From NCBI GenBank assembly GCA_016783545.1, contig JADHWJ010000004.1:27513-91512 (forward strand): a stretch of 64,000 nt of DNA. Direction: 5' to 3'. This DNA is from Candidatus Aenigmatarchaeota archaeon. Its GTDB lineage: Archaea > Aenigmatarchaeota > Aenigmatarchaeia > QMZP01. Of the stretch, positions 35,622-63,998 are shown piece after piece (within the stretch, counting starts at the first letter, position 1; the number at the start of each line of letters is the position of its first letter). The notes beneath the pieces were generated by a model. It was not told the origin of the DNA. It searched no databases and saw only the letters and a program-made list of their open reading frames with translations. Made by a program: the position numbers and the translations under genes.

Positions 35622-35732
35622 TGGGCTCGGAGAGGTCTTCGGCTTTGCTGAAGGCAAGTGCCTTAGCACAACGATCGAACTCCCGGCCTCCACGTTATCA
35701 GCGTGGCGTTCTAACCACTGAACTACGAGCCC
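35622..35732 (-). tRNA. tRNA-Ile(GAU) with ~38-nt intron at the T-loop/T-stem junction
   Basis: GGGCTCG-TA-GTTC-AGTGGTTA-GAAC-G-CCACG-CTGATAA-CGTGG-AGGCC-GGGAG-TTCGATC-[GTTGTGC...GAAGAC]-CTCTC-CGAGCCC-A. Confidence 0.8.
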
Positions 35733-39918: not shown

Positions 39919-40293
39919 ATGAAAGTGCTTGCAGGCGGAACTTTTAATAATATTCACAAAGGACATGTTTTTTTCATTAGTGAATGTAAAAAGCTGGGTG
40001 ACTTCTTAGTTATTGTTATAGCAAACGATAGCACTGTTCTTAAAAGAAAAAAACTTTTAAGAAATGCAGAAAAGAGAAAGGAATCTGTTGAATCATTAGG
40101 AATTGCTGATAGTGTTATTATAGGTAATGAAAAAAATCACCTGGAAATAATTGAGAAAGAAAGACCTGATATAATTGCTCTCGGTTATGACCAGAAGATG
40201 CCCGGGCTTGAAGAAAAGACAAAAGAACTTGGACTGAAAATTATTAGGATAAAAAAATTAGAAGGATATTCCACCAGAGCTAACATTAGGTGA
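39919..40293 (+). CDS. ribL: cytidylyltransferase-family nucleotidyltransferase (RibL FAD synthase-like)
   Basis: GGTFNNIHKGH (GTFxxxHxGH), VIVIANDSTV, PDIIALGYDQ. Confidence 0.5.
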   Translation: MKVLAGGTFNNIHKGHVFFISECKKLGDFLVIVIANDSTVLKRKKLLRNAEKRKESVESLGIADSVIIGNEKNHLEIIEKERPDIIALGYDQKMPGLEEKTKELGLKIIRIKKLEGYSTRANIR

Positions 40294-40942
40294 CCTGAAG
40301 TTCGCTTAGAGGGCATTTTATATATTCACCTTCTATTTCACATCCAGGAGGCATCTGAATACCACCAACTTCACCCTGTTCTAAAAGATTAGAAATATTC
40401 TTCAAATCATCTGGTGACATACCCAACATTGAATAAAGATCTTCATTTGTATCAGGTAATCCCTGAAAGTTTAATAGTAAATATGCAACAAATGCGATTA
40501 TTATAACAATACCGATTATTGTGAATTTGTTTATCCCCTTTCCTTCAAATTTCTTTGCAGTGTTTATTCTATTCTCCAGTTTCTTTATAACACCTTTTAG
40601 CCTTTCAATATCCTCTCTTCTATATGTAACAAAAAATAAACCAATACCGAATACTATCGATGACACAAGACCTCCAATAAAAAGGTCTATTTGCATAAGC
40701 TTAAGAATACCTGTGCTAAATGACTGGAAAAAACCAGACAGTGGTACAGCGCTAATTAAACATAGAAATCCAATACCAATACCAAGTAAAAATTTTAAAA
40801 TAGGATGTATATATGCCCTATAAAATCTAGTTGCAAGAGAACCGAAAAACAGTATGAAAAACACATAAAAAATTATCTGGGAAAAAAATAAAATTTGTGG
40901 TAATTGGTTTATTATTTCCATCATACCTGCTATCGGTGGCAT
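40286..40942 (-). CDS. membrane protein, unknown function
   Basis: Four or five hydrophobic helices. No motif recognised. Confidence 0.4.
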   Translation of the reverse strand: MPPIAGMMEIINQLPQILFFSQIIFYVFFILFFGSLATRFYRAYIHPILKFLLGIGIGFLCLISAVPLSGFFQSFSTGILKLMQIDLFIGGLVSSIVFGIGLFFVTYRREDIERLKGVIKKLENRINTAKKFEGKGINKFTIIGIVIIIAFVAYLLLNFQGLPDTNEDLYSMLGMSPDDLKNISNLLEQGEVGGIQMPPGCEIEGEYIKCPLSELQVT

Positions 40943-42522: not shown

Positions 42523-44139
42523 ATGGAAGCCGCAAAAAAACAGAGATTATCGAAATTAGTTGAATATCTGGAAAACATTAAAGGTAGGCATACCGAACTG
42601 GTTACAGTCTATATACCAAGCGGATACAATATAAATAAAGTCGCTGAGCAATTGAGACAAGAACAGAGCACAGCACAAAACATAAAAAGTAAGGCCGTGA
42701 GAAAGAATGTTTTGTCTGCATTGGAAAAAATATTACAACATCTAAAACTCTACAGACAAACACCTGCAAACGGACTGGCTATATTCTGCGGTAATGTTTC
42801 TGAGAAAGACGGCACTGCTGATATTGAAATGTGGGCAATTGAGCCACCAGAATCAGTTAAACTAAGACTTTATAGATGCGATCAGAATTTCATTCTGGAC
42901 CATCTTAGAGATATGGTGAGAGAAAAAGAAATATACGGACTCGTTGTGATAGACAAATCAGATGCTGAAGTAGGGCTTCTGAAGGGAAAGAAAATAGAAC
43001 CCCTTAAACATTCTGAGAGTAATGTTCCTGGAAAAACAAAGGCCGGTGGGTGGTGTGTACATGAAAAAACCAATATAGAAACAAACAGCCAAACGATCGT
43101 TGATAAACTAAAAGAAGGTGATAAAATAAAATCATTTGATTTTGAAAATAAAAGAATAGTAAAATCCTTCTGCAAAAGAAAATTTTCAAGGAAATCTAAA
43201 GTAGCATATAAAATTGGAATAAGATATTCAAAGCTTATGGTTACAGGAGAACATTTATTTTTTCTATCATTTGACAAAAAAACAAAACCAGCGGATTGTT
43301 TGGAAATCGGAGATAATGTTTTATTCTATGATGGGTTCAAAGTTGAGAGGGAAAAAATCACTTCAATAAAAAAAATCAAAAATCCAAAAGGCCTTTTCTT
43401 TGATTTGGAAGTCCCAAATTACCAAAGTTTTATGGCAAATGGCTTCATTCTTCACAATTCACAGGCCAGATACCAACGAATCCGTGAGAACATGCTTAAT
43501 GATTTTCTGAGAAAAGTTGGTGAGATTGTAAATTCAAAGTTCAAAGAGATGAGAGACCTAAAAGGCATAATAATAGGAGGTCCTGCTGGAGTAAAAGAGC
43601 AGTTTGCTGAGGGAAAATATCTTGAGCCTCCAATCAAGAAAAAAATCATAGGTATTGTTGATACATCGTATACAGGCGAACCTGGGTTAAAAGAACTTAT
43701 TGAACGATCAGACGAGCTGATTTCAGAGGCATCTGCGATAAGAGAGAACAAAATACTAGAGAGGTTCTTTGGAGAGCTTGCAACTGATGGCCTGGCTGTT
43801 TATGGATTTGTAGAGACAATAGAAGCACTGAAAAATGGAAATGTTGAGATGCTTTTGCTCTCAGAGAGCTTTGACTGGGTAAAAGCAAAGCTTGAATGTC
43901 CTAAGTGTGGCGGAGGTGCAGAGGTTGAGGAAAAGGAAGAATTCCTTAAAGACGAGAGATGTTCTAATTGCAAGTCAGCAATGACGGTTGTTGCAAAAGC
44001 AGAGCTTATCGATGAAATGATAAAACTTGCTGAACAGATGGGTTCTGATGTTGAGATGATTTCTGATGAAAGTCCAAGAGGTATTCAGGTAAAAGAACTT
44101 GGTGGGATAGCTGGAATCTTAAGATATAAGACGGAGTAG
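42523..44139 (+). CDS. prf1: peptide chain release factor aRF1, interrupted by a mini-intein
   Basis: aRF1 collinearity (NIKS-region AQNIKSKAVRKN; GG...SQARYQRIRE; C-terminal domain). 538 aa minus the 135-aa intein gives 403 aa. Confidence 0.85.
   Translation: MEAAKKQRLSKLVEYLENIKGRHTELVTVYIPSGYNINKVAEQLRQEQSTAQNIKSKAVRKNVLSALEKILQHLKLYRQTPANGLAIFCGNVSEKDGTADIEMWAIEPPESVKLRLYRCDQNFILDHLRDMVREKEIYGLVVIDKSDAEVGLLKGKKIEPLKHSESNVPGKTKAGGWCVHEKTNIETNSQTIVDKLKEGDKIKSFDFENKRIVKSFCKRKFSRKSKVAYKIGIRYSKLMVTGEHLFFLSFDKKTKPADCLEIGDNVLFYDGFKVEREKITSIKKIKNPKGLFFDLEVPNYQSFMANGFILHNSQARYQRIRENMLNDFLRKVGEIVNSKFKEMRDLKGIIIGGPAGVKEQFAEGKYLEPPIKKKIIGIVDTSYTGEPGLKELIERSDELISEASAIRENKILERFFGELATDGLAVYGFVETIEALKNGNVEMLLLSESFDWVKAKLECPKCGGGAEVEEKEEFLKDERCSNCKSAMTVVAKAELIDEMIKLAEQMGSDVEMISDESPRGIQVKELGGIAGILRYKTE
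43054..43458 (+). mobile_element. mini-intein (135 aa, no endonuclease domain) in the aRF1 GGQ loop
   Basis: Starts with Cys (CVHEKT). Block B LMVTGEH (TxxH). Block F FFDLEVPNYQSFMANG. Block G FILHN followed by Ser+1. Confidence 0.7.
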
Positions 44140-44141
44140 GT

Positions 44142-44513
44142 ATGGGAATAAAAGCAGAATTTAATTGTGACATGGCACTAAGAGATATTTCTGAGTTCAA
44201 AAATGGGAACAGAAAGCTTGAGGAATGCATTCCAGAGAAACTGGAAGCCGGAAAGGTCTATGATTTTCTCAAAAAAGACCAAAGACTTTATTATATTTCT
44301 GATGATCCTCAGTGGGATTTTGGAGAAATTCCTTTATGTGTAACACAAGGAGAAGGAAAATTATCAAGACCATTAGCAAGCGTAAAAATTTTAGAAGCAA
44401 CGCATTTCCTTCTTAATGGAGAGATTCATACAAAAGGAAAGTATAAAGTGATTGAAGTCTTTGACCCAAAAGACCCTAAGATACATTTTGAAAACCTGAA
44501 AAGAATTAAATAA
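44142..44513 (+). CDS. hypothetical protein
   Basis: 123-aa ORF starting 2 nt after aRF1. No motif recognised. Confidence 0.35.
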   Translation: MGIKAEFNCDMALRDISEFKNGNRKLEECIPEKLEAGKVYDFLKKDQRLYYISDDPQWDFGEIPLCVTQGEGKLSRPLASVKILEATHFLLNGEIHTKGKYKVIEVFDPKDPKIHFENLKRIK

Positions 44514-44581
44514 CAATACATTTTGCCGAAAAAAATATTCTAAAATAATCGATATAAATAGTTTGGATTCAAATTAAACTC

Positions 44582-45196
44582 ATGCCTAATACACAAGATA
44601 TAGTAGTTGTGGATATAGATGGTACAGTAGCAGACTGTTGCGAGAGAAAATTCAAATCTTTGCATGATTCTGGTGTACATATCCTGGAAACCGAGGATTT
44701 TTTTGTTGACTCGCATTTAACACCAGAGCAATTGAAGACATTTCTTTCCATATTCCTTTCCAATAAATATATTCATTTAGATGAGCCAGTTCCATATGCT
44801 GCAGAAGTTCTTCAAAGACTGGAAAAATCTGGAAAAAGAATAGTCTATCTTACAGCTCGCCATGATTCTGATTCTGAAGACTCTATGAGATGGGGAACAA
44901 TTCAGTGGTTGAAGAGGTATAACTTTCCCCTTGACACGGATCACCTATTCATGAAAATTGATAAAGGCGAGAGTAATAGGGAATGCAAAGAAAGAGAGAT
45001 GAGAGAGATATCAGGATTAGGAAACGTTTATGCTGGTATAGGAGACATGAGAGAAGATGCGGACGTTTATTTAAAATTTACTAGTAATTGTGTATTATTG
45101 ACAACCTTTCACCCAGAAAGCGAGTATGAAGGATTAGACAAAAGAGTAAAGCTTGTGGATGATTGGCAACAGATAGGAAGATATTTAGGAGTTTAA
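44582..45196 (+). CDS. HAD-superfamily phosphatase
   Basis: Motif I VVVDIDGTV, motif II YLTAR, motif IV GIGDMREDAD. Confidence 0.6.
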   Translation: MPNTQDIVVVDIDGTVADCCERKFKSLHDSGVHILETEDFFVDSHLTPEQLKTFLSIFLSNKYIHLDEPVPYAAEVLQRLEKSGKRIVYLTARHDSDSEDSMRWGTIQWLKRYNFPLDTDHLFMKIDKGESNRECKEREMREISGLGNVYAGIGDMREDADVYLKFTSNCVLLTTFHPESEYEGLDKRVKLVDDWQQIGRYLGV

Positions 45197-45910
45197 ATGT
45201 CACCTGAACGTTCAGTTGAATTTTTTGGAGAAGTGCCAAAAGCGCTTTGTAAAAGCAAACTTGTAGTTAGTCATCTAAGAGATGTTGCAAGAGAATTGGG
45301 AGACAATACCCTAGAACAAGGATTTAGTGGTGTTGCTGTTCCAGATGAACTTGGACCATACCTATTAACATTATATATGAACGAAGTAATGATGGATGCA
45401 ATGGACAGATTACAATGCCAGGGCGCATCTCTTTTCCATGAAGGTCCTGATGAAGATTATTTATATGGTTGTGTTGGTTCGATATCTGACAGACTTAGGG
45501 TTAGGAACATATCTGCTACAAAGGCAACAACCGTCATTAAAGTAGGAAAACAATCCCCGGATAGATTTACTCCATTATGTTGGAGAGAGAAAAGACCAAT
45601 GATTTCAATTTCACCTGGCGCAGAAGAAGATATTTCACTAGAAGTATACAATACCACTACTAATGCGTTAGAAGAAACAAGACCAATGAAAAGCAGTAGC
45701 AGGGATAGTAGTGTTGACGAAGGTACAGGAATTAGTACAAGTAGCGCAATTTATGTTCCTGTTATGGTAGGCAATTCCCCGTATGGTGTAGTAAGGGCCT
45801 ATAGAACCAGTGGAGATAGGTTTATTGCTGATGATGTACCTAAACTTCTAAGACTGGGAAAAGAAGAGGCACCACTTTTTGAGTTATTTCACAGAGTTTA
45901 TGGGGAGTAG
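45197..45910 (+). CDS. hypothetical protein (possible GAF-like C-terminal region)
   Basis: 237-aa ORF whose start abuts the HAD stop. VPVMVGNSPYGVVRAYRTSGDRFIADDVPKLLRLG resembles the end of a GAF domain. Visibly less AT-rich than its neighbours. Confidence 0.3.
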   Translation: MSPERSVEFFGEVPKALCKSKLVVSHLRDVARELGDNTLEQGFSGVAVPDELGPYLLTLYMNEVMMDAMDRLQCQGASLFHEGPDEDYLYGCVGSISDRLRVRNISATKATTVIKVGKQSPDRFTPLCWREKRPMISISPGAEEDISLEVYNTTTNALEETRPMKSSSRDSSVDEGTGISTSSAIYVPVMVGNSPYGVVRAYRTSGDRFIADDVPKLLRLGKEEAPLFELFHRVYGE

Positions 45911-46022
45911 TTTAAAATATTTCTAAACTATAGTTCCTGACAAAATAAATCAGAATATTTCAGGAACTGAATAGCTAATGATGATTTCTAACTTATTATA
46001 ATATTATCTATAATTAATTATT

Positions 46023-48725
46023 ATGAAGAAGATTTTCCTAGTTATATTACTATCGCTAATTCTCATACCTAATGCTGCATATGCTGAGATTGTTATAAAC
46101 ACGTATTCTGATTCCCAATATTATGGGCCTACCAGCATTTTCAGTGAAGGGCCTGTTTATTTTACAGTAAGTGATGGAAGTTATTGTTGCGATAAGACAG
46201 ACGTTGTGATTAAAAGCCAGAATGAGAACATAACAGTTGCTGCATATGACAATGGTATAATACCAGATAAAGAGCCAAATGACGGTATTTTCTTCGGTGT
46301 TTTTCATATAGGAGAGGGCCTAGCAGATAGTGCTATAAATTATATACGCTCAGAAACAGATGAAGCTCTTGAAATACATGTTTCATTTAGCAGAATATCC
46401 TCAGGGAATAGGATTATATACACAGAATTCAGCAAGCCAGTGGCTGTAGAGTTATCAGCTGAATTCAGAGACAATGCAGTGACATTAAACTGGAATCCTT
46501 CATCTGACATATCTGGCATAAAAAATTATATTGTTTATAGACATACTGAGAAATTCTCAGAATCTGATATAAGCAGAATCAGTTCATTTATGACTGAAAA
46601 TACAAGTTACATAGACAGATCGATAGAAGATGGTAAAATCTATTATTATTCTGTGATACCTGTAGATAATCTGAACACAAAGGGACAGTTCTCAAATATT
46701 GTTGAGATATCTACACCTGATATCACAGCTCCTAAATCCATAACAGATTTACATTATACGCAATATAGAGGAGAGGTCACGCTAAAATGGAACAGACCAT
46801 ATGATAATGTAGGTATTGCAAAATATCTTGTCTATAGGGATACCCTTTCAATTGAATCCCCAGAAACACAGATACCTTATGCTGAGACAGATAATATAAT
46901 CTATATTGATAAAAACACAAATGATGGAGAAAGGTTTTACTACGCTGTTTTTGCTGTTGATACTTTGAATAATATTGCAAGACCGTCCAACAATGTTCTT
47001 GTTGAAATAGATAAGACACCTCCTGAAAAAATCACTGACCTTGAAGCACATCAGAGAAAAAACGGAGAGATATTTTTGAACTGGTCAGGATCAGACATGT
47101 ACAGAATATATTATTCTATATATCCAATCACATCTGTTAATGGATTAAGTAATGTCATCATTAACGAAAGTACATTTTCAGATTTTCCAGAAAAGCCAAT
47201 GTATTACACTGTTTCTGCAATTGATGTTTATGGAAATGAAGCAGAGAATTCAAATATTGTGTTTGGAGATCCAGATGACATATCACCAAACCCACCTGAA
47301 AATCTAAACGCAATAGCATATTCAAATGGAACTGTTTTTCTTTCATGGGATCCATCTGGTTCCCAGGATGTGATGTATTATGATGTCTACAGAACAAGAG
47401 AAAATGAGTATGTTCATATTACCCGGACAGACGAAAAAAGAGTTTTTGATAGAAATATAATTCCTGGAACATATCATTATATTGTAAAAGCAGTTGATGG
47501 TGCTGGTAACGAGGGAGAAAGTTCTGTTCAGGTAAATGTCATAGATACTGAAATAAATCTTATTATACTCCATCCTCAAAATGACATATCTGTTTCCCAA
47601 GCGCAGATACTTGTTCTTGGTAGTGTGGATACTGACGCTGAAATAGAAGTTGAAAATAACGGCATTGTTTTTGATGCCATGATAAGCGAGAATGGAAATT
47701 TCGCTGGATATGCAAACCTCAGTGACGGTGAAAACGAATTGAAGGTGAAAGCAACAGATCCTGCGGGAAATAGTAAAGAGCAGAAGTTGAAAATAACCAA
47801 TAGGTATGTTTCAGCATCAACTGATGCCAGAAAAAAAATTCAGGAATATATAGGAAAAAATATAACATTTGATAATACACTATTCGATGAATTAGTAGAA
47901 TCTGATCCGTCTCTTTCAGGTTCAGATATGTTCACAACATATGTTTTCACAAGAACCACAGAAATAGTAGGATTTGTTATTTTGATTATTCTAGTAGTTG
48001 TAGTTATTGTTTTCCATAAAAAAACAAAGAAAGAGATAGTCAAAATTGTCGGAACAAAACTAAAATATGAATATGATGAAAAGAGCAGGCTAAAAAACGC
48101 TGCAACAAAATATATATCAGCAATACCTTCTGAGATTATAAGAGGCGTGAAAAACCTGAGGATTAAGAGAGTTGAAAAAGAAGCCACTGTTCTTTTTGCA
48201 GATATAAGAGGATTTACAAATCTAGCATCCAAGCTTGGTCATAATAAAACAGCAGATATGCTTGATATATTTTTCAAGGAAATGGCAGATATTATTATAA
48301 AACATGGTGGTTCAGTGGCAGAATATGTTGGTGACAGAATATATGCAACATTCAACCTGAACAAAGAATGTAATAATCACTCTCACAGTGCTGTAAAAAG
48401 TTCTGAAGAAATGCATGGTGTTGTAAAAGAACTGAATAAAAAAATATTCGGGGTTGATAACAAAATGCAGATAGGTGTTGGTATAAAAACAGGAAAATTG
48501 GTTGCAGGTACTATTGGACATCCAGAAGCATTAAAATATGCTGCTGTTGGTGATGTTGTAAATATAGCATCAAAACTTTCTGATAGTGCAAATGCAGGAG
48601 AGACAATAATAGATGAAGATACCTACAAAGAAATAAAAGATAAAGTAAATGTGATAAGAAATTCAATCACTTTAAAGGGTGGAAAAGTGATAAACGCGTT
48701 CAAAATATTATCTTTGAAAGAATAA
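46023..48725 (+). CDS. receptor-type class III nucleotidyl cyclase: signal peptide, ~4 FN3-like repeats, Ig-like region, TM, cyclase domain
   Basis: Repeats with WNPSSD...YIVYR, KWNRPYD...YLVYRD and LSWDPSG...YDVYRT. TM IVGFVILIILVVVVIVF. Cyclase motifs ATVLFADIRGFT, EYVGDRIYATF, GVGIKTGKLVAGTIG, GDVVNIASKL. Confidence 0.7.
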   Translation: MKKIFLVILLSLILIPNAAYAEIVINTYSDSQYYGPTSIFSEGPVYFTVSDGSYCCDKTDVVIKSQNENITVAAYDNGIIPDKEPNDGIFFGVFHIGEGLADSAINYIRSETDEALEIHVSFSRISSGNRIIYTEFSKPVAVELSAEFRDNAVTLNWNPSSDISGIKNYIVYRHTEKFSESDISRISSFMTENTSYIDRSIEDGKIYYYSVIPVDNLNTKGQFSNIVEISTPDITAPKSITDLHYTQYRGEVTLKWNRPYDNVGIAKYLVYRDTLSIESPETQIPYAETDNIIYIDKNTNDGERFYYAVFAVDTLNNIARPSNNVLVEIDKTPPEKITDLEAHQRKNGEIFLNWSGSDMYRIYYSIYPITSVNGLSNVIINESTFSDFPEKPMYYTVSAIDVYGNEAENSNIVFGDPDDISPNPPENLNAIAYSNGTVFLSWDPSGSQDVMYYDVYRTRENEYVHITRTDEKRVFDRNIIPGTYHYIVKAVDGAGNEGESSVQVNVIDTEINLIILHPQNDISVSQAQILVLGSVDTDAEIEVENNGIVFDAMISENGNFAGYANLSDGENELKVKATDPAGNSKEQKLKITNRYVSASTDARKKIQEYIGKNITFDNTLFDELVESDPSLSGSDMFTTYVFTRTTEIVGFVILIILVVVVIVFHKKTKKEIVKIVGTKLKYEYDEKSRLKNAATKYISAIPSEIIRGVKNLRIKRVEKEATVLFADIRGFTNLASKLGHNKTADMLDIFFKEMADIIIKHGGSVAEYVGDRIYATFNLNKECNNHSHSAVKSSEEMHGVVKELNKKIFGVDNKMQIGVGIKTGKLVAGTIGHPEALKYAAVGDVVNIASKLSDSANAGETIIDEDTYKEIKDKVNVIRNSITLKGGKVINAFKILSLKE

Positions 48726-48786: not shown

Positions 48787-49938
48787 CTATATGCCACGAG
48801 TTTGCCTATTTTCTTCGCTCACCTTGCCCGTAGAGGGCTCTATTGCATTCCCAAGGACTTTTTTAACATTAATATCTAGTCCTTTTCTCAATTCATCTCC
48901 TTTATTCTCTTTTGAAAAGAAATCCATCTTTGCAGCAAGGCTAATCTTTGCTGCAATTAATCTTGCAATTTTTCCTTTTACCTCATTAGGAGCATTTTGT
49001 ATATGTTCATGCCCAAACAAAATCCCAAATTTAGGAGCCTTGAATCTTTCCTTGTCTTTCATATGCCTGAAAAGAGCTTTCTCAGAACCCAATAGTTGTA
49101 TTGTAGAAGATGGCATCTTAGCAATCTTTTCCAACCCGCCTGCAATTGAAAGTAATCTTGCAGCAAGCAAAGGGCCTGCAACAGCGCTTATATTCGGAAT
49201 AATCTTATTACATGAAGATTCTATGTATTTTTCAAGGCTAGTCTTCACAACATATAGTTCAGAAATAGACCTTGCTATACCCTGAACCTCTTTAATATCA
49301 TCATCAGAAAAATCCATACCAGCAGAACTTTCCACATATTTGGCAAGTTCACCATCTCTTATATTATCCCTTCTTCCGTGCTTATAGACAATATCTGCAT
49401 ACTTCTCATTAGTTTTGATTATCTCCCCCATTTCAGGAAAATGAAGACCATACCATTCCTTAAGTCTTTCTGAAATTACATTTACTTCCTTTGTTATTTC
49501 ATCTAAAATACCAATAGCGTGCATAACTATTTCATCTTTTCTAACTTTTTTTATCTCCCCTTTTGCTAGTAAAATATTCACTTTTGAGAGCAAATCATTG
49601 ATCTCAGCTTGAGACATGGCCCATTTAAGATGAAGAGCAAGACTTCTGAATTCATCATTGAGTTTTTTGGCTGCTATATTATCAACCACATGTATGCAGG
49701 ATATGTCTTTATATCTCATATCTTTTTTATCCCATGCAATTTCCTTAAATCCGCAAGAAATTAAATTTTTAAGAATCTCTTCTTCTTCGTGTAGAATTTC
49801 ACCTTTCCTTGATTTCGAAATCCTTTCTGCTATAAGTTCGGCTTCTTTGGGGAAAAGTCTTTTGTCTAATATTTTCCCGTCTTTATCAAAGGCGAAGACG
49901 CCCATGATGTTTGTTGCCATGAAAGCTCTAAATTCCAT
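48787..49938 (-). CDS. nop5: box C/D sRNP core protein Nop5 (Nop56/58)
   Basis: AGPLLAARLLSIAGGLEKIAKMPSSTIQLLGSEKALFRH...PKFGILFGHEHIQ. Confidence 0.85.
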   Translation of the reverse strand: MEFRAFMATNIMGVFAFDKDGKILDKRLFPKEAELIAERISKSRKGEILHEEEEILKNLISCGFKEIAWDKKDMRYKDISCIHVVDNIAAKKLNDEFRSLALHLKWAMSQAEINDLLSKVNILLAKGEIKKVRKDEIVMHAIGILDEITKEVNVISERLKEWYGLHFPEMGEIIKTNEKYADIVYKHGRRDNIRDGELAKYVESSAGMDFSDDDIKEVQGIARSISELYVVKTSLEKYIESSCNKIIPNISAVAGPLLAARLLSIAGGLEKIAKMPSSTIQLLGSEKALFRHMKDKERFKAPKFGILFGHEHIQNAPNEVKGKIARLIAAKISLAAKMDFFSKENKGDELRKGLDINVKKVLGNAIEPSTGKVSEENRQTRGI

Positions 49939-62989: not shown

Positions 62990-63071
62990 ATGGTATAATT
63001 GAATCTTATATTTAAAAGCTTCATTTTATAGTTGAAGACAATTTAAAACTAAAAAAAATAATCTATTTCTT

Positions 63072-63998
63072 ATGGATGAAAAGATTAAACAAAAATTAGA
63101 GAATCAGCAGTATAGAATAGTAGGTAATCATAGTGCTGTAAAAATTTGTAATTGGACTAAAAAATCTTTAATAGACAATGGTGAGTGTTATAAATCCAAA
63201 TTTTATTCAATACCAACACACCGCTGTTGCCAGATGACACCTTCAATGTTTTGCCCGAACAAATGCCAATTTTGCTGGAGATCAATTGAACATTTTAATG
63301 CAGTAAAACTTTCAAAGTCAGATGAACCAAAAGATATAGTTGATGGTTGTATAGAGGGTCAGAGACATCTTCTGAATGGGTTTCCTGGTAATACAGAAAT
63401 CAATATGGAAAAGTTCAAAGAAGCACAAGAACCAACAAACTTTGCTATCAGCTTATCGGGTGAACCAACTATCTATTCAAAACTAGATGGTTTGATAGAA
63501 GAGCTTAACAAAAGAAAAAAGTTTTCTTTTCTGGTTACAAACGGACAGTTTCCAGAAAGACTTGAAAAACTAGAATCCTTACCAACACAGCTATATGTTT
63601 CCTTGGATGCACCAACAAAAGAACTCTACCAAAAAATAGATAGACCAAGTCTCAAAGATTTCTGGGAAAGGTTCAACAAAACTCTGGAACTCCTTCCAAC
63701 ACTAGATACAAGAAAGGTTCTGAGACTAACAGCTGTCAAAGGTCTAAATATGACAAAGGTAGAAGAGTATGCCAAGCTCATAGAAAAAGCTAATGTAGAC
63801 TGGATTGAGATAAAGGCCTATATGTGGGTAGGTGAAAGTAGAAATCGTCTGAAAGAAGAGAACATGCCAACCCACAATGATATTCAAGAATTTTCAAAAC
63901 AAATCGCTGAAAAAATTGAAATGGATATAATAGACGAACAGAAAGAAAGTAGAGTCTGCCTTTTAGCTGAAAAAGATTCTAGGGAGAGATTCCTGTGA
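63072..63998 (+). CDS. taw1: tRNA 4-demethylwyosine synthase Taw1 (TYW1, radical SAM)
   Basis: HSAVKICNWTKKSL...CYK..FY.I..HRC.QMTPS..CPNKCQFCWR cluster motifs. SLSGEPT. Confidence 0.8.
   Translation: MDEKIKQKLENQQYRIVGNHSAVKICNWTKKSLIDNGECYKSKFYSIPTHRCCQMTPSMFCPNKCQFCWRSIEHFNAVKLSKSDEPKDIVDGCIEGQRHLLNGFPGNTEINMEKFKEAQEPTNFAISLSGEPTIYSKLDGLIEELNKRKKFSFLVTNGQFPERLEKLESLPTQLYVSLDAPTKELYQKIDRPSLKDFWERFNKTLELLPTLDTRKVLRLTAVKGLNMTKVEEYAKLIEKANVDWIEIKAYMWVGESRNRLKEENMPTHNDIQEFSKQIAEKIEMDIIDEQKESRVCLLAEKDSRERFL

Follow-up and report, generated by a model that had tools for sequence, protein, structure and literature searches.

In a 64,000-nucleotide stretch of the genome of a Candidatus Aenigmatarchaeota archaeon (GenBank assembly GCA_016783545.1, contig JADHWJ010000004.1, positions 27,513 to 91,512 of the forward strand; hereafter the window), we analyzed a gene encoding the class-I release factor aRF1, in which the third residue of the catalytic GGQ motif is a Trp and the coding sequence is interrupted, directly after this residue, by a mini-intein. 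With a probability of about 0.72, we read it as the gene of an orthologous, working and probably sole class-I release factor, which would be spliced to a GGW-S loop and in which the Trp would have a hydrophobic packing role. The Trp is unlinked to the intein and characterizes aRF1 throughout a clade of Aenigmatarchaeota, with Met or Phe in sister clades. Judging from the sequences compared here, it looks like a lineage-wide exception to the GGQ rule, found in more than 100 related genomes.

First, we established which protein family the window gene belongs to and where the Trp falls within it. The open reading frame (ORF) scored 446.8 bits against the aRF1_eRF1 equivalog model TIGR03676, for which the cut-off is 234.7, and the domains eRF1_1, eRF1_2, and eRF1_3 (PF03463, PF03464, PF03465) were all found above their gathering cut-offs. 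Like canonical aRF1/eRF1 proteins (TIGR03676; structures 4af1, 3agk, and 1dt9), the product has three domains, the decoding motifs NIKS and YxCxxxF, the GILRY motif (44113-44127) and the loop PGKxxxGG-S--R--R. Its C-extein also contains a CxxC...CxxC insertion. The aRF1 match starts at amino acid (aa) 6, stops exactly at aa 177/178 and restarts at aa 313, with the N-extein covering residues 12-187 of 4af1 and positions 2-173 of the TIGR03676 profile. Against the Pelota model TIGR00111, the protein reached 73.5 bits, which fails the cut-off of 177.65, and it contains both NIKS and the GG loop. The N-extein ends with PGKTKAGGW and the C-extein begins with SQARYQRIRE. When aligned to solved structures with HMMER, GGW falls without a gap over the GGQ of 4af1 (PGKQRKGGQ followed by SAQRFARLR). 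The alignment to 3agk contains PGKHKMGG, then one residue outside the aligned stretches, then SQRRYERI, and we take the unaligned residue to be the Gln expected of a GGQ motif. The original prediction, which was made from the DNA sequence without database searches, had described a mini-intein in aRF1 at 43054-43458, located inside the GGQ motif, with Trp (TGG at 43051-43053) in place of the catalytic Gln, a spliced product reading GGW-SQ, and all three stop codons in use by neighboring genes. Our analysis agrees with it on all of these points, the spliced product being deduced from the sequence. Among the 67 ORFs of the window, 38 end with TAA, 15 with TGA, and 14 with TAG. With each of the three stop codons in use, an omnipotent release factor is required. 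An identical protein was previously deposited from a metagenome-assembled genome (MAG) of Candidatus Aenigmarchaeota (ISS36_02160, 97-kb contig), where it is annotated as a "hypothetical protein". The domains, the equivalog score, and the decoding motifs are all those of the aRF1 family, while the motif reads GGW and not the canonical GGQ. The predicted protein is thus a variant of the aRF1/eRF1 family and not a canonical member, since the Gln is replaced and both Gly are kept.

To evaluate how well the Trp is conserved, we compared 113 GGW cluster representatives, drawn from NCBI, JGI, ENA, and Logan and sharing 52-100% pairwise identity (median of 63%). W177 belongs to the 53 invariant columns out of 401. 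In the same representatives, NIKS, Y-C---F, and the PGK---GG-S--R--R loop are also invariant, with GILRY at the C terminus. The GGW and GGQ sequences all share residues P169, G170, K171, G175, G176, S178, R181, and R184, with zero indels. Of note, hmmalign mis-registers the intein-bearing sequences in the motif column, and these were parsed with a regular expression. This pattern of conservation points to purifying selection on what would be a working release factor with Trp as the third residue of its motif.

The 113 GGW proteins were found among the best 120 protein matches to the window aRF1, almost all of them from Candidatus Aenigmatarchaeota MAGs; the others have GGM (three), GGF (one), or GGQ (three). 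Intein-free proteins of approximately 400 aa make up 97 of these 120 homologues, and 95 of the 97 read GGWS directly (e.g., GGWSQARYARIRE and GGWSANRYARIRE). We also scanned GTDB, with one genome per species, using an aRF1 alignment as the query. The scan gave at least 599 stretches, and the best 80 of 527 loci were kept. These 80 loci come from 80 different assemblies and reach other phyla at 43% identity; the motif was unparsable in eight of them. The third codon of the motif is TGG (Trp) at 15 loci (L007-L018, L020, L021, L031), including the complete 742-kb chromosome CP070804.1. The titles of these 15 genomes name Aenigmatarchaeota in 11 cases and "uncultured archaeon" in four. Seven loci (L022, L023, L028, L043, L046, L050, L056) have ATG (Met), one of them on the 791-kb contig CAYJQI010000001.1. 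The remaining Aenigmatarchaeota among the listed loci, including chromosome CP066684.1, have CAA or CAG (Gln), as does every parsable locus from another phylum (Thermococcus, Hadarchaeota, Woese-, Pace-, Nanohalo-, Undin-, Odin-, Jordarchaeia, and Methanomicrobia). In a neighbor-joining (NJ) tree, the aRF1 of Aenigmatarchaeota split into one clade with GGM or GGF, another with GGQ, and a large one with GGW.

More distant homologues came from 1.84 billion cluster representatives, searched exhaustively with HMMER using the intein-free GGW homologue P0009 as the query. Intein-free aRF1 proteins without the Gln were found again at about 32-49% identity to P0009. Five have GGW (P0146, P0168, P0189, P0221, P0250; 38-49% identity), and the others have GGF (P0138), GGM (P0179), or GGE (P0243, at 32% identity, and P0259). 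P0250 corresponds to loci L087/L088, and P0168 (L086, GCA_003558235.1) sits amid the ordinary core genes Dph2 and TruD. The GGE protein P0259 (WP_455278356.1) is labeled as [Eubacterium] cellulosolvens, which probably reflects a contaminating archaeal contig. From this distribution, the Gln was probably replaced more than once, including outside the main GGW clade of Aenigmatarchaeota.

The GGW genes are positional orthologues of the GGQ genes and probably not paralogs, as the genomic slot of the variant equals that of GGQ orthologues in the same phylum. On a JGI contig of 664,793 bp (Ga0452209_000001), the GGW aRF1 gene (+) lies between a divergent gene encoding a 231-aa KaiC-like ATPase (-) and the Nop5 gene (-). 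The GGQ gene P0107 (L001) has the same KaiC-like ATPase and Nop5 neighbors, and the GGQ gene P0069 (L004) has the same KaiC-like ATPase upstream. The window retains a remnant of this neighborhood, as its Nop5 is 49% identical to the Nop5 adjoining the GGW aRF1 of locus L003. In related genomes, aRF1 and Nop5 lie side by side; in the window, four extra genes (44142-48725) separate them. A candidate for the upstream KaiC-like neighbor, at 40286-40942 (-) of the window, was rejected.

We also searched for additional release factors. Neither a second aRF1 nor a Pelota gene was found within the 64-kb window using tblastn with GGW and GGQ aRF1 as well as Pfam; a weak tblastn match at 63045-63446 was rejected as a second aRF1, being the radical-SAM enzyme Tyw1. 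No assembly had two aRF1 loci among the best 80 of 527 GTDB loci. A profile search with the GGQ-clade Aenigmatarchaeota returned only GGQ proteins among its best 120 matches, and no long contig was shared between the best 120 matches of the GGW and GGQ lists, the former including contigs of 664,793, 464,277, 420,166, 297,114, and 270,718 bp and others, and the latter contigs of 740,627, 539,967, 407,743, and 251,283 bp and others. The GGW gene could still be a neo-functionalized or inactive paralog, termination being carried out by a canonical GGQ aRF1 encoded elsewhere in the genome, but we consider this unlikely. Although GGQ-type aRF1 genes exist in the phylum, and our view spans 64 kb of this genome together with the best 80 of 527 loci of the genome scan, the two types share one syntenic slot and were never seen on a common long contig, the 80 loci belong to as many assemblies, and the GGW type exceeds the aRF1 equivalog cut-off with its decoding motifs and W invariant. 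A non-functional paralog was one of three explanations offered by the original prediction, and it is contradicted by the conservation of W177 and the decoding motifs, by positional orthology, and by the lack of shared long contigs and double hits in these searches.

How a GGW factor might work can be considered in light of what is established for GGQ. The role of the Gln side chain and of its methylation has long been debated. In known systems, both glycines and the main-chain NH of the residue that follows them carry the chemistry, with the side chain serving mainly to pack the active-site pocket. The main-chain NH of the Gln residue is reportedly the catalytic contributor; only Pro is said to abolish activity, and the side chain would mainly exclude nucleophiles larger than water. 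Any mutation of the two glycines abolishes peptide release, and the Gln side chain has been assigned a packing role, as opposed to an indispensable chemical role (PMC5799190). To judge by the title of Seit-Nebi et al. (2000), as it appears in the reference list of PMC2613156, mutating the Gln of human eRF1 leaves its activity unabolished. In the mechanism that we propose, the 538-aa precursor would be translated and the mini-intein, bounded by Cys1 and by His-Asn ahead of Ser+1, would excise itself. Trp177 would thereby be joined to Ser, giving a 403-aa aRF1 with the catalytic loop GGW-S. All three stop codons would still be read through the intact NIKS and YxCxxxF motifs, and peptidyl-tRNA hydrolysis would still be triggered by the GGW factor. 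The bulky hydrophobic Trp, Met, or Phe may fill the pocket, taking on the packing role of N5-methyl-glutamine elsewhere. The residues accepted here, W, M, and F, are neither small nor charged, which fits this hydrophobic packing idea. Of the three explanations in the original prediction, the evidence favors this one, namely that a residue other than Gln is tolerated.

With Trp as the third residue of the tripeptide (Met or Phe in the sister clades), the window protein differs from canonical aRF1 and cannot undergo N5-methylation by Mtq2. This methyltransferase could be dispensable in these small genomes, or it may serve another substrate. Within the window (zero NPPY ORFs) and the 85 loci that we fetched (incidental NPPF in three cases only), no Mtq2 candidate with NPPY was found. 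A methyltransferase located 5 kb from the GGW aRF1 in L003 was rejected as Mtq2 because it has no NPPY motif. The predicted GGW proteins contradict an explicit proposal whereby aRF1 would be methylated on the Gln of GGQ "in archaea in general" (PMC6144793). Close to what we see as the best explanation is an alternative form of it, in which the hydrophobic side chain would fully replace methyl-Gln and both Mtq2 and Trm112 would be dispensable. The laboratory GGQ mutants of RF1, RF2, and eRF1 are altered at the same position. However, they are engineered and mostly deleterious, whereas GGW is natural, fixed, and conserved across a deep clade. The glycines are altered in the AAQ mutants of eRF1 but invariant in GGW aRF1.

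Several points weigh against a fully working and sole GGW release factor. Gln substitutions are lethal or strongly deleterious in yeast and Escherichia coli, and full activity of GGW is therefore not a given. The literature presents GGQ as essential as well as universally conserved (PMC2613156, PMC6144793, PMC5799190). In our NJ tree, which is a simple one, a few GGQ sequences (P0069/L004, L019, P0107/L001, and P0087/L006) are nested within the GGW clade, with approximately 60% identity to the query, like most GGW proteins. These could be either reversals from Trp to Gln, which would take at least two nucleotide changes, or the result of an unresolved basal topology. The evidence for a single copy is indirect, as it comes from the best 80 of 527 loci, and a very divergent second factor may exist. 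Finally, every sequence used here comes from metagenome assemblies.

A different view of the same data is that the GGW aRF1 decodes stop codons without catalysis. Termination would then be Pelota-like, with ribosome splitting by ABCE1 followed by hydrolysis off the ribosome by peptidyl-tRNA hydrolase or another factor. Pelota/Dom34 has a homologous M/C-domain fold, lacks a catalytic Gln, and works without GGQ (PMC2613156), and the strict conservation of the decoding motifs in the absence of the Gln would be in line with such a role, as would the acceptance of three hydrophobic residues (W, M, F) if the side chain had no chemical role. Pelota is devoid of the GGQ loop, NIKS, and YxCxxxF, whereas the window protein keeps its GG loop and both motifs. 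However, the glycines and the loop PGKxxxGG-S--R--R are invariant, which is expected solely of a loop that continues to enter the peptidyl-transferase center, the W is invariant in its clade and does not drift, and hydrophobic replacements can keep activity if the side chain has the packing role assigned to it (PMC5799190). We find this view quite improbable for the window protein. Extended to all GGW/GGM/GGF Aenigmatarchaeota and to the few other GGW/GGF/GGE lineages, it would mean that their aRF1 only decodes and that the ester is cut through ribosome splitting and off-ribosome hydrolysis, which we hold to be just as improbable.

Another possibility raised in the original prediction is that the Gln two residues downstream (Gln179, in GGW-S-Q) substitutes for the GGQ glutamine in catalysis. 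At this +2 position (window 43459-43467), Gln is found in 111 of 144 non-Gln factors (GG(W/M/F)-S-Q) vs three of 36 GGQ factors of the same sample. Most columns that separate Gln from non-Gln factors are phylogenetic; only the +2 enrichment looks local, and it is not obligatory. It may reflect partial co-variation or simply phylogeny. Ala occupies the position in the other 33 of 144 non-Gln factors, many GGW orthologues reading GGWSANRY or GGWSASRF, which largely refutes a catalytic Gln179. In addition, GGQ-S-Q also occurs in canonical aRF1, such as 3agk (SQRRY) and several representatives, and a shift of two residues would displace the side chain from the loop tip. Despite the enrichment, a substitute role for Gln179 is thus very unlikely. 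That the Trp is an artefact, whether through sequencing or assembly error, a non-standard splice junction regenerating GGQ, or TGG decoded as Gln, has a negligible chance: the codon is TGG in 16 of 16 GGW loci fetched (L003 and the 15 GTDB loci, all independent assemblies), Trp is present in 113 protein clusters, a change from CAA/CAG to TGG takes two or three substitutions, and intein-free orthologues read GGWS directly, so that no splice-site choice restores the Gln and sequencing error is excluded. Within the sequences covered here, we found no regenerated GGQ, no second canonical aRF1 beside a degenerate copy, and no error at the TGG codon.

The insert itself is a class-1 mini-intein devoid of an endonuclease domain (Table 1). 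It scored above the cut-offs of the Pfam model Intein_splicing (PF14890; 41.7 bits, cut-off of 35.8) and of the NCBIfam model intein_Cterm (TIGR01443; 25.5 bits, cut-off of 15.6), and it matches the solved intein 6rpp_A (E = 5.8e-6). Among the best 120 homologues, 23 carry an intein, always inserted between the third motif residue and the Ser. These 23 inteins share the blocks CV(H/S)EDT.., TPEH, F(Y/F)D.., and (F/V/M)AN(G/N)xxxHN, indicating that they are homologous. Six of them are mini forms of 134-141 aa, and the others have 412-517 aa with LAGLIDADG_3 and, in many cases, HTH_3. The window intein aligns only with both ends of these 412-517-aa relatives, the middle of about 370 aa with LAGLIDADG and the helix-turn-helix (HTH) being gone. 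The intein family at this site accepts W, M, F, and Q as the -1 residue, and inteins at the same site (GGQ followed by the intein Cys) interrupt many canonical GGQ aRF1 proteins of other archaea. Compared with the full-length and mini inteins at the aRF1 site of other archaea, the window copy has the same insertion point and splicing blocks (CVHEDT.., TPEH, F.D.., NGxxxHN); it differs from the full-length ones in its missing HTH and LAGLIDADG regions and in its Trp at -1.

The inteins closest to the window copy are 47-53% identical to it, and the exteins of the same relatives are 63-64% identical. The intein DNA has a G+C content of 28%, vs 39-40% for the flanking exteins and 34% across the entire window. 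The relatives with the most similar exteins, P0004 (78%) and P0009 (69%), are intein-free. By these comparisons, the window intein adds an ordinary new member to a family often found at the aRF1 site, and its predicted history follows the life cycle usual for homing inteins after loss of the endonuclease. From its intact residues, we infer that it splices; it must do so if, as appears to be the case, the host gene is essential and single-copy. We also observed that inteins at the aRF1 GGQ site are very frequent in other archaeal aRF1 lineages (representatives P0129-P0233), being carried by roughly a third of the 150 nearest 50%-identity representatives. Some intein-bearing aRF1 proteins have 1187-1452 aa, which suggests more than one intein.

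Table 1. Coordinates of the aRF1 gene, its motifs, its intein and the nearby Nop5 gene in the window.
Feature	Position in window	Strand	Remarks
aRF1 precursor gene	42523..44139	+	538 aa including the intein; TAG stop
N-extein, aa 1-177	42523..43053	+	aRF1 N domain and first part of the M domain; ends with GGW
NIKS stop-codon recognition motif, aa 53-56	42679..42690	+	N53, I54, K55, S56 invariant in 113 GGW homologues
YxCxxxF decoding motif (YRCDQNF), aa 117-123	42871..42891	+	Y117, C119, F123 invariant in 113 GGW homologues
GGW (GGT GGG TGG), catalytic GGQ loop position	43045..43053	+	Trp codon at 43051-43053
Class-1 mini-intein, 135 aa (aa 178-312)	43054..43458	+	No endonuclease domain
Intein Cys1 (Cys178), TGT	43054-43056	+	N-terminal splicing residue
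Intein block B, TGEH (T241-G-E-H244)	43243-43254	+	Read from translation
Intein block F, GLFFDLEV..ANG	43390-43443	+	Read from translation
Intein block G, FILHN, then +1 Ser313	43444-43461	+	Terminal H311-N312 at 43453-43458
C-extein, 226 aa	43459..44136	+	Starts with +1 Ser (SQARYQRIRE); rest of the M domain and C domain
Nop5 gene	48787..49938	-	Pfam Nop and Nop5_56-rel_N_Arc; remnant of the conserved aRF1/Nop5 neighborhood

Two further observations were made in the window. The four genes inserted between aRF1 and Nop5 comprise two ORFs of 123 and 237 aa, a HAD phosphatase gene, and a gene encoding a 900-aa fn3/Big_13 protein, the latter with a C-terminal adenylate/guanylate cyclase domain that is unusual for a DPANN archaeon. 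In addition, a tRNA-Ile(GAU) at 35622-35732 (-) is interrupted at a non-canonical position, in the T-loop, by an intron of approximately 37 nt. Rfam covers only its 5' 57 nt (32.9 bits) and ARAGORN gave no match; the T-stem and acceptor strand of the 3' side (CTCTC CGAGCCC A) are found 37 nt beyond the part matched by Rfam.

Previous work, including a survey of release-factor evolution (PMC6514570) and an analysis of the e/aRF1 family (PMC2613156), treated GGQ as invariant in aRF1. In the literature that we searched, which left subscription-only papers outside its scope, neither a natural class-I release factor without the Gln nor an aRF1 intein was described. With GGW/M/F, the predicted catalytic loop takes a new form, consistent in more than 100 independent assemblies. 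Annotation pipelines and motif screens that require GGQ will mislabel GGW genes, as illustrated by the annotation under which the window protein was deposited. With Trp, Met, or Phe fixed in a natural clade and Gln kept in its sister clades, evolution has in effect already set up a comparative experiment. The fixed residues predict what can support release in vivo, and the comparison allows a direct test of whether methylation makes the Gln more hydrophobic. Intein-free sequences such as P0009 can be used directly in termination assays.

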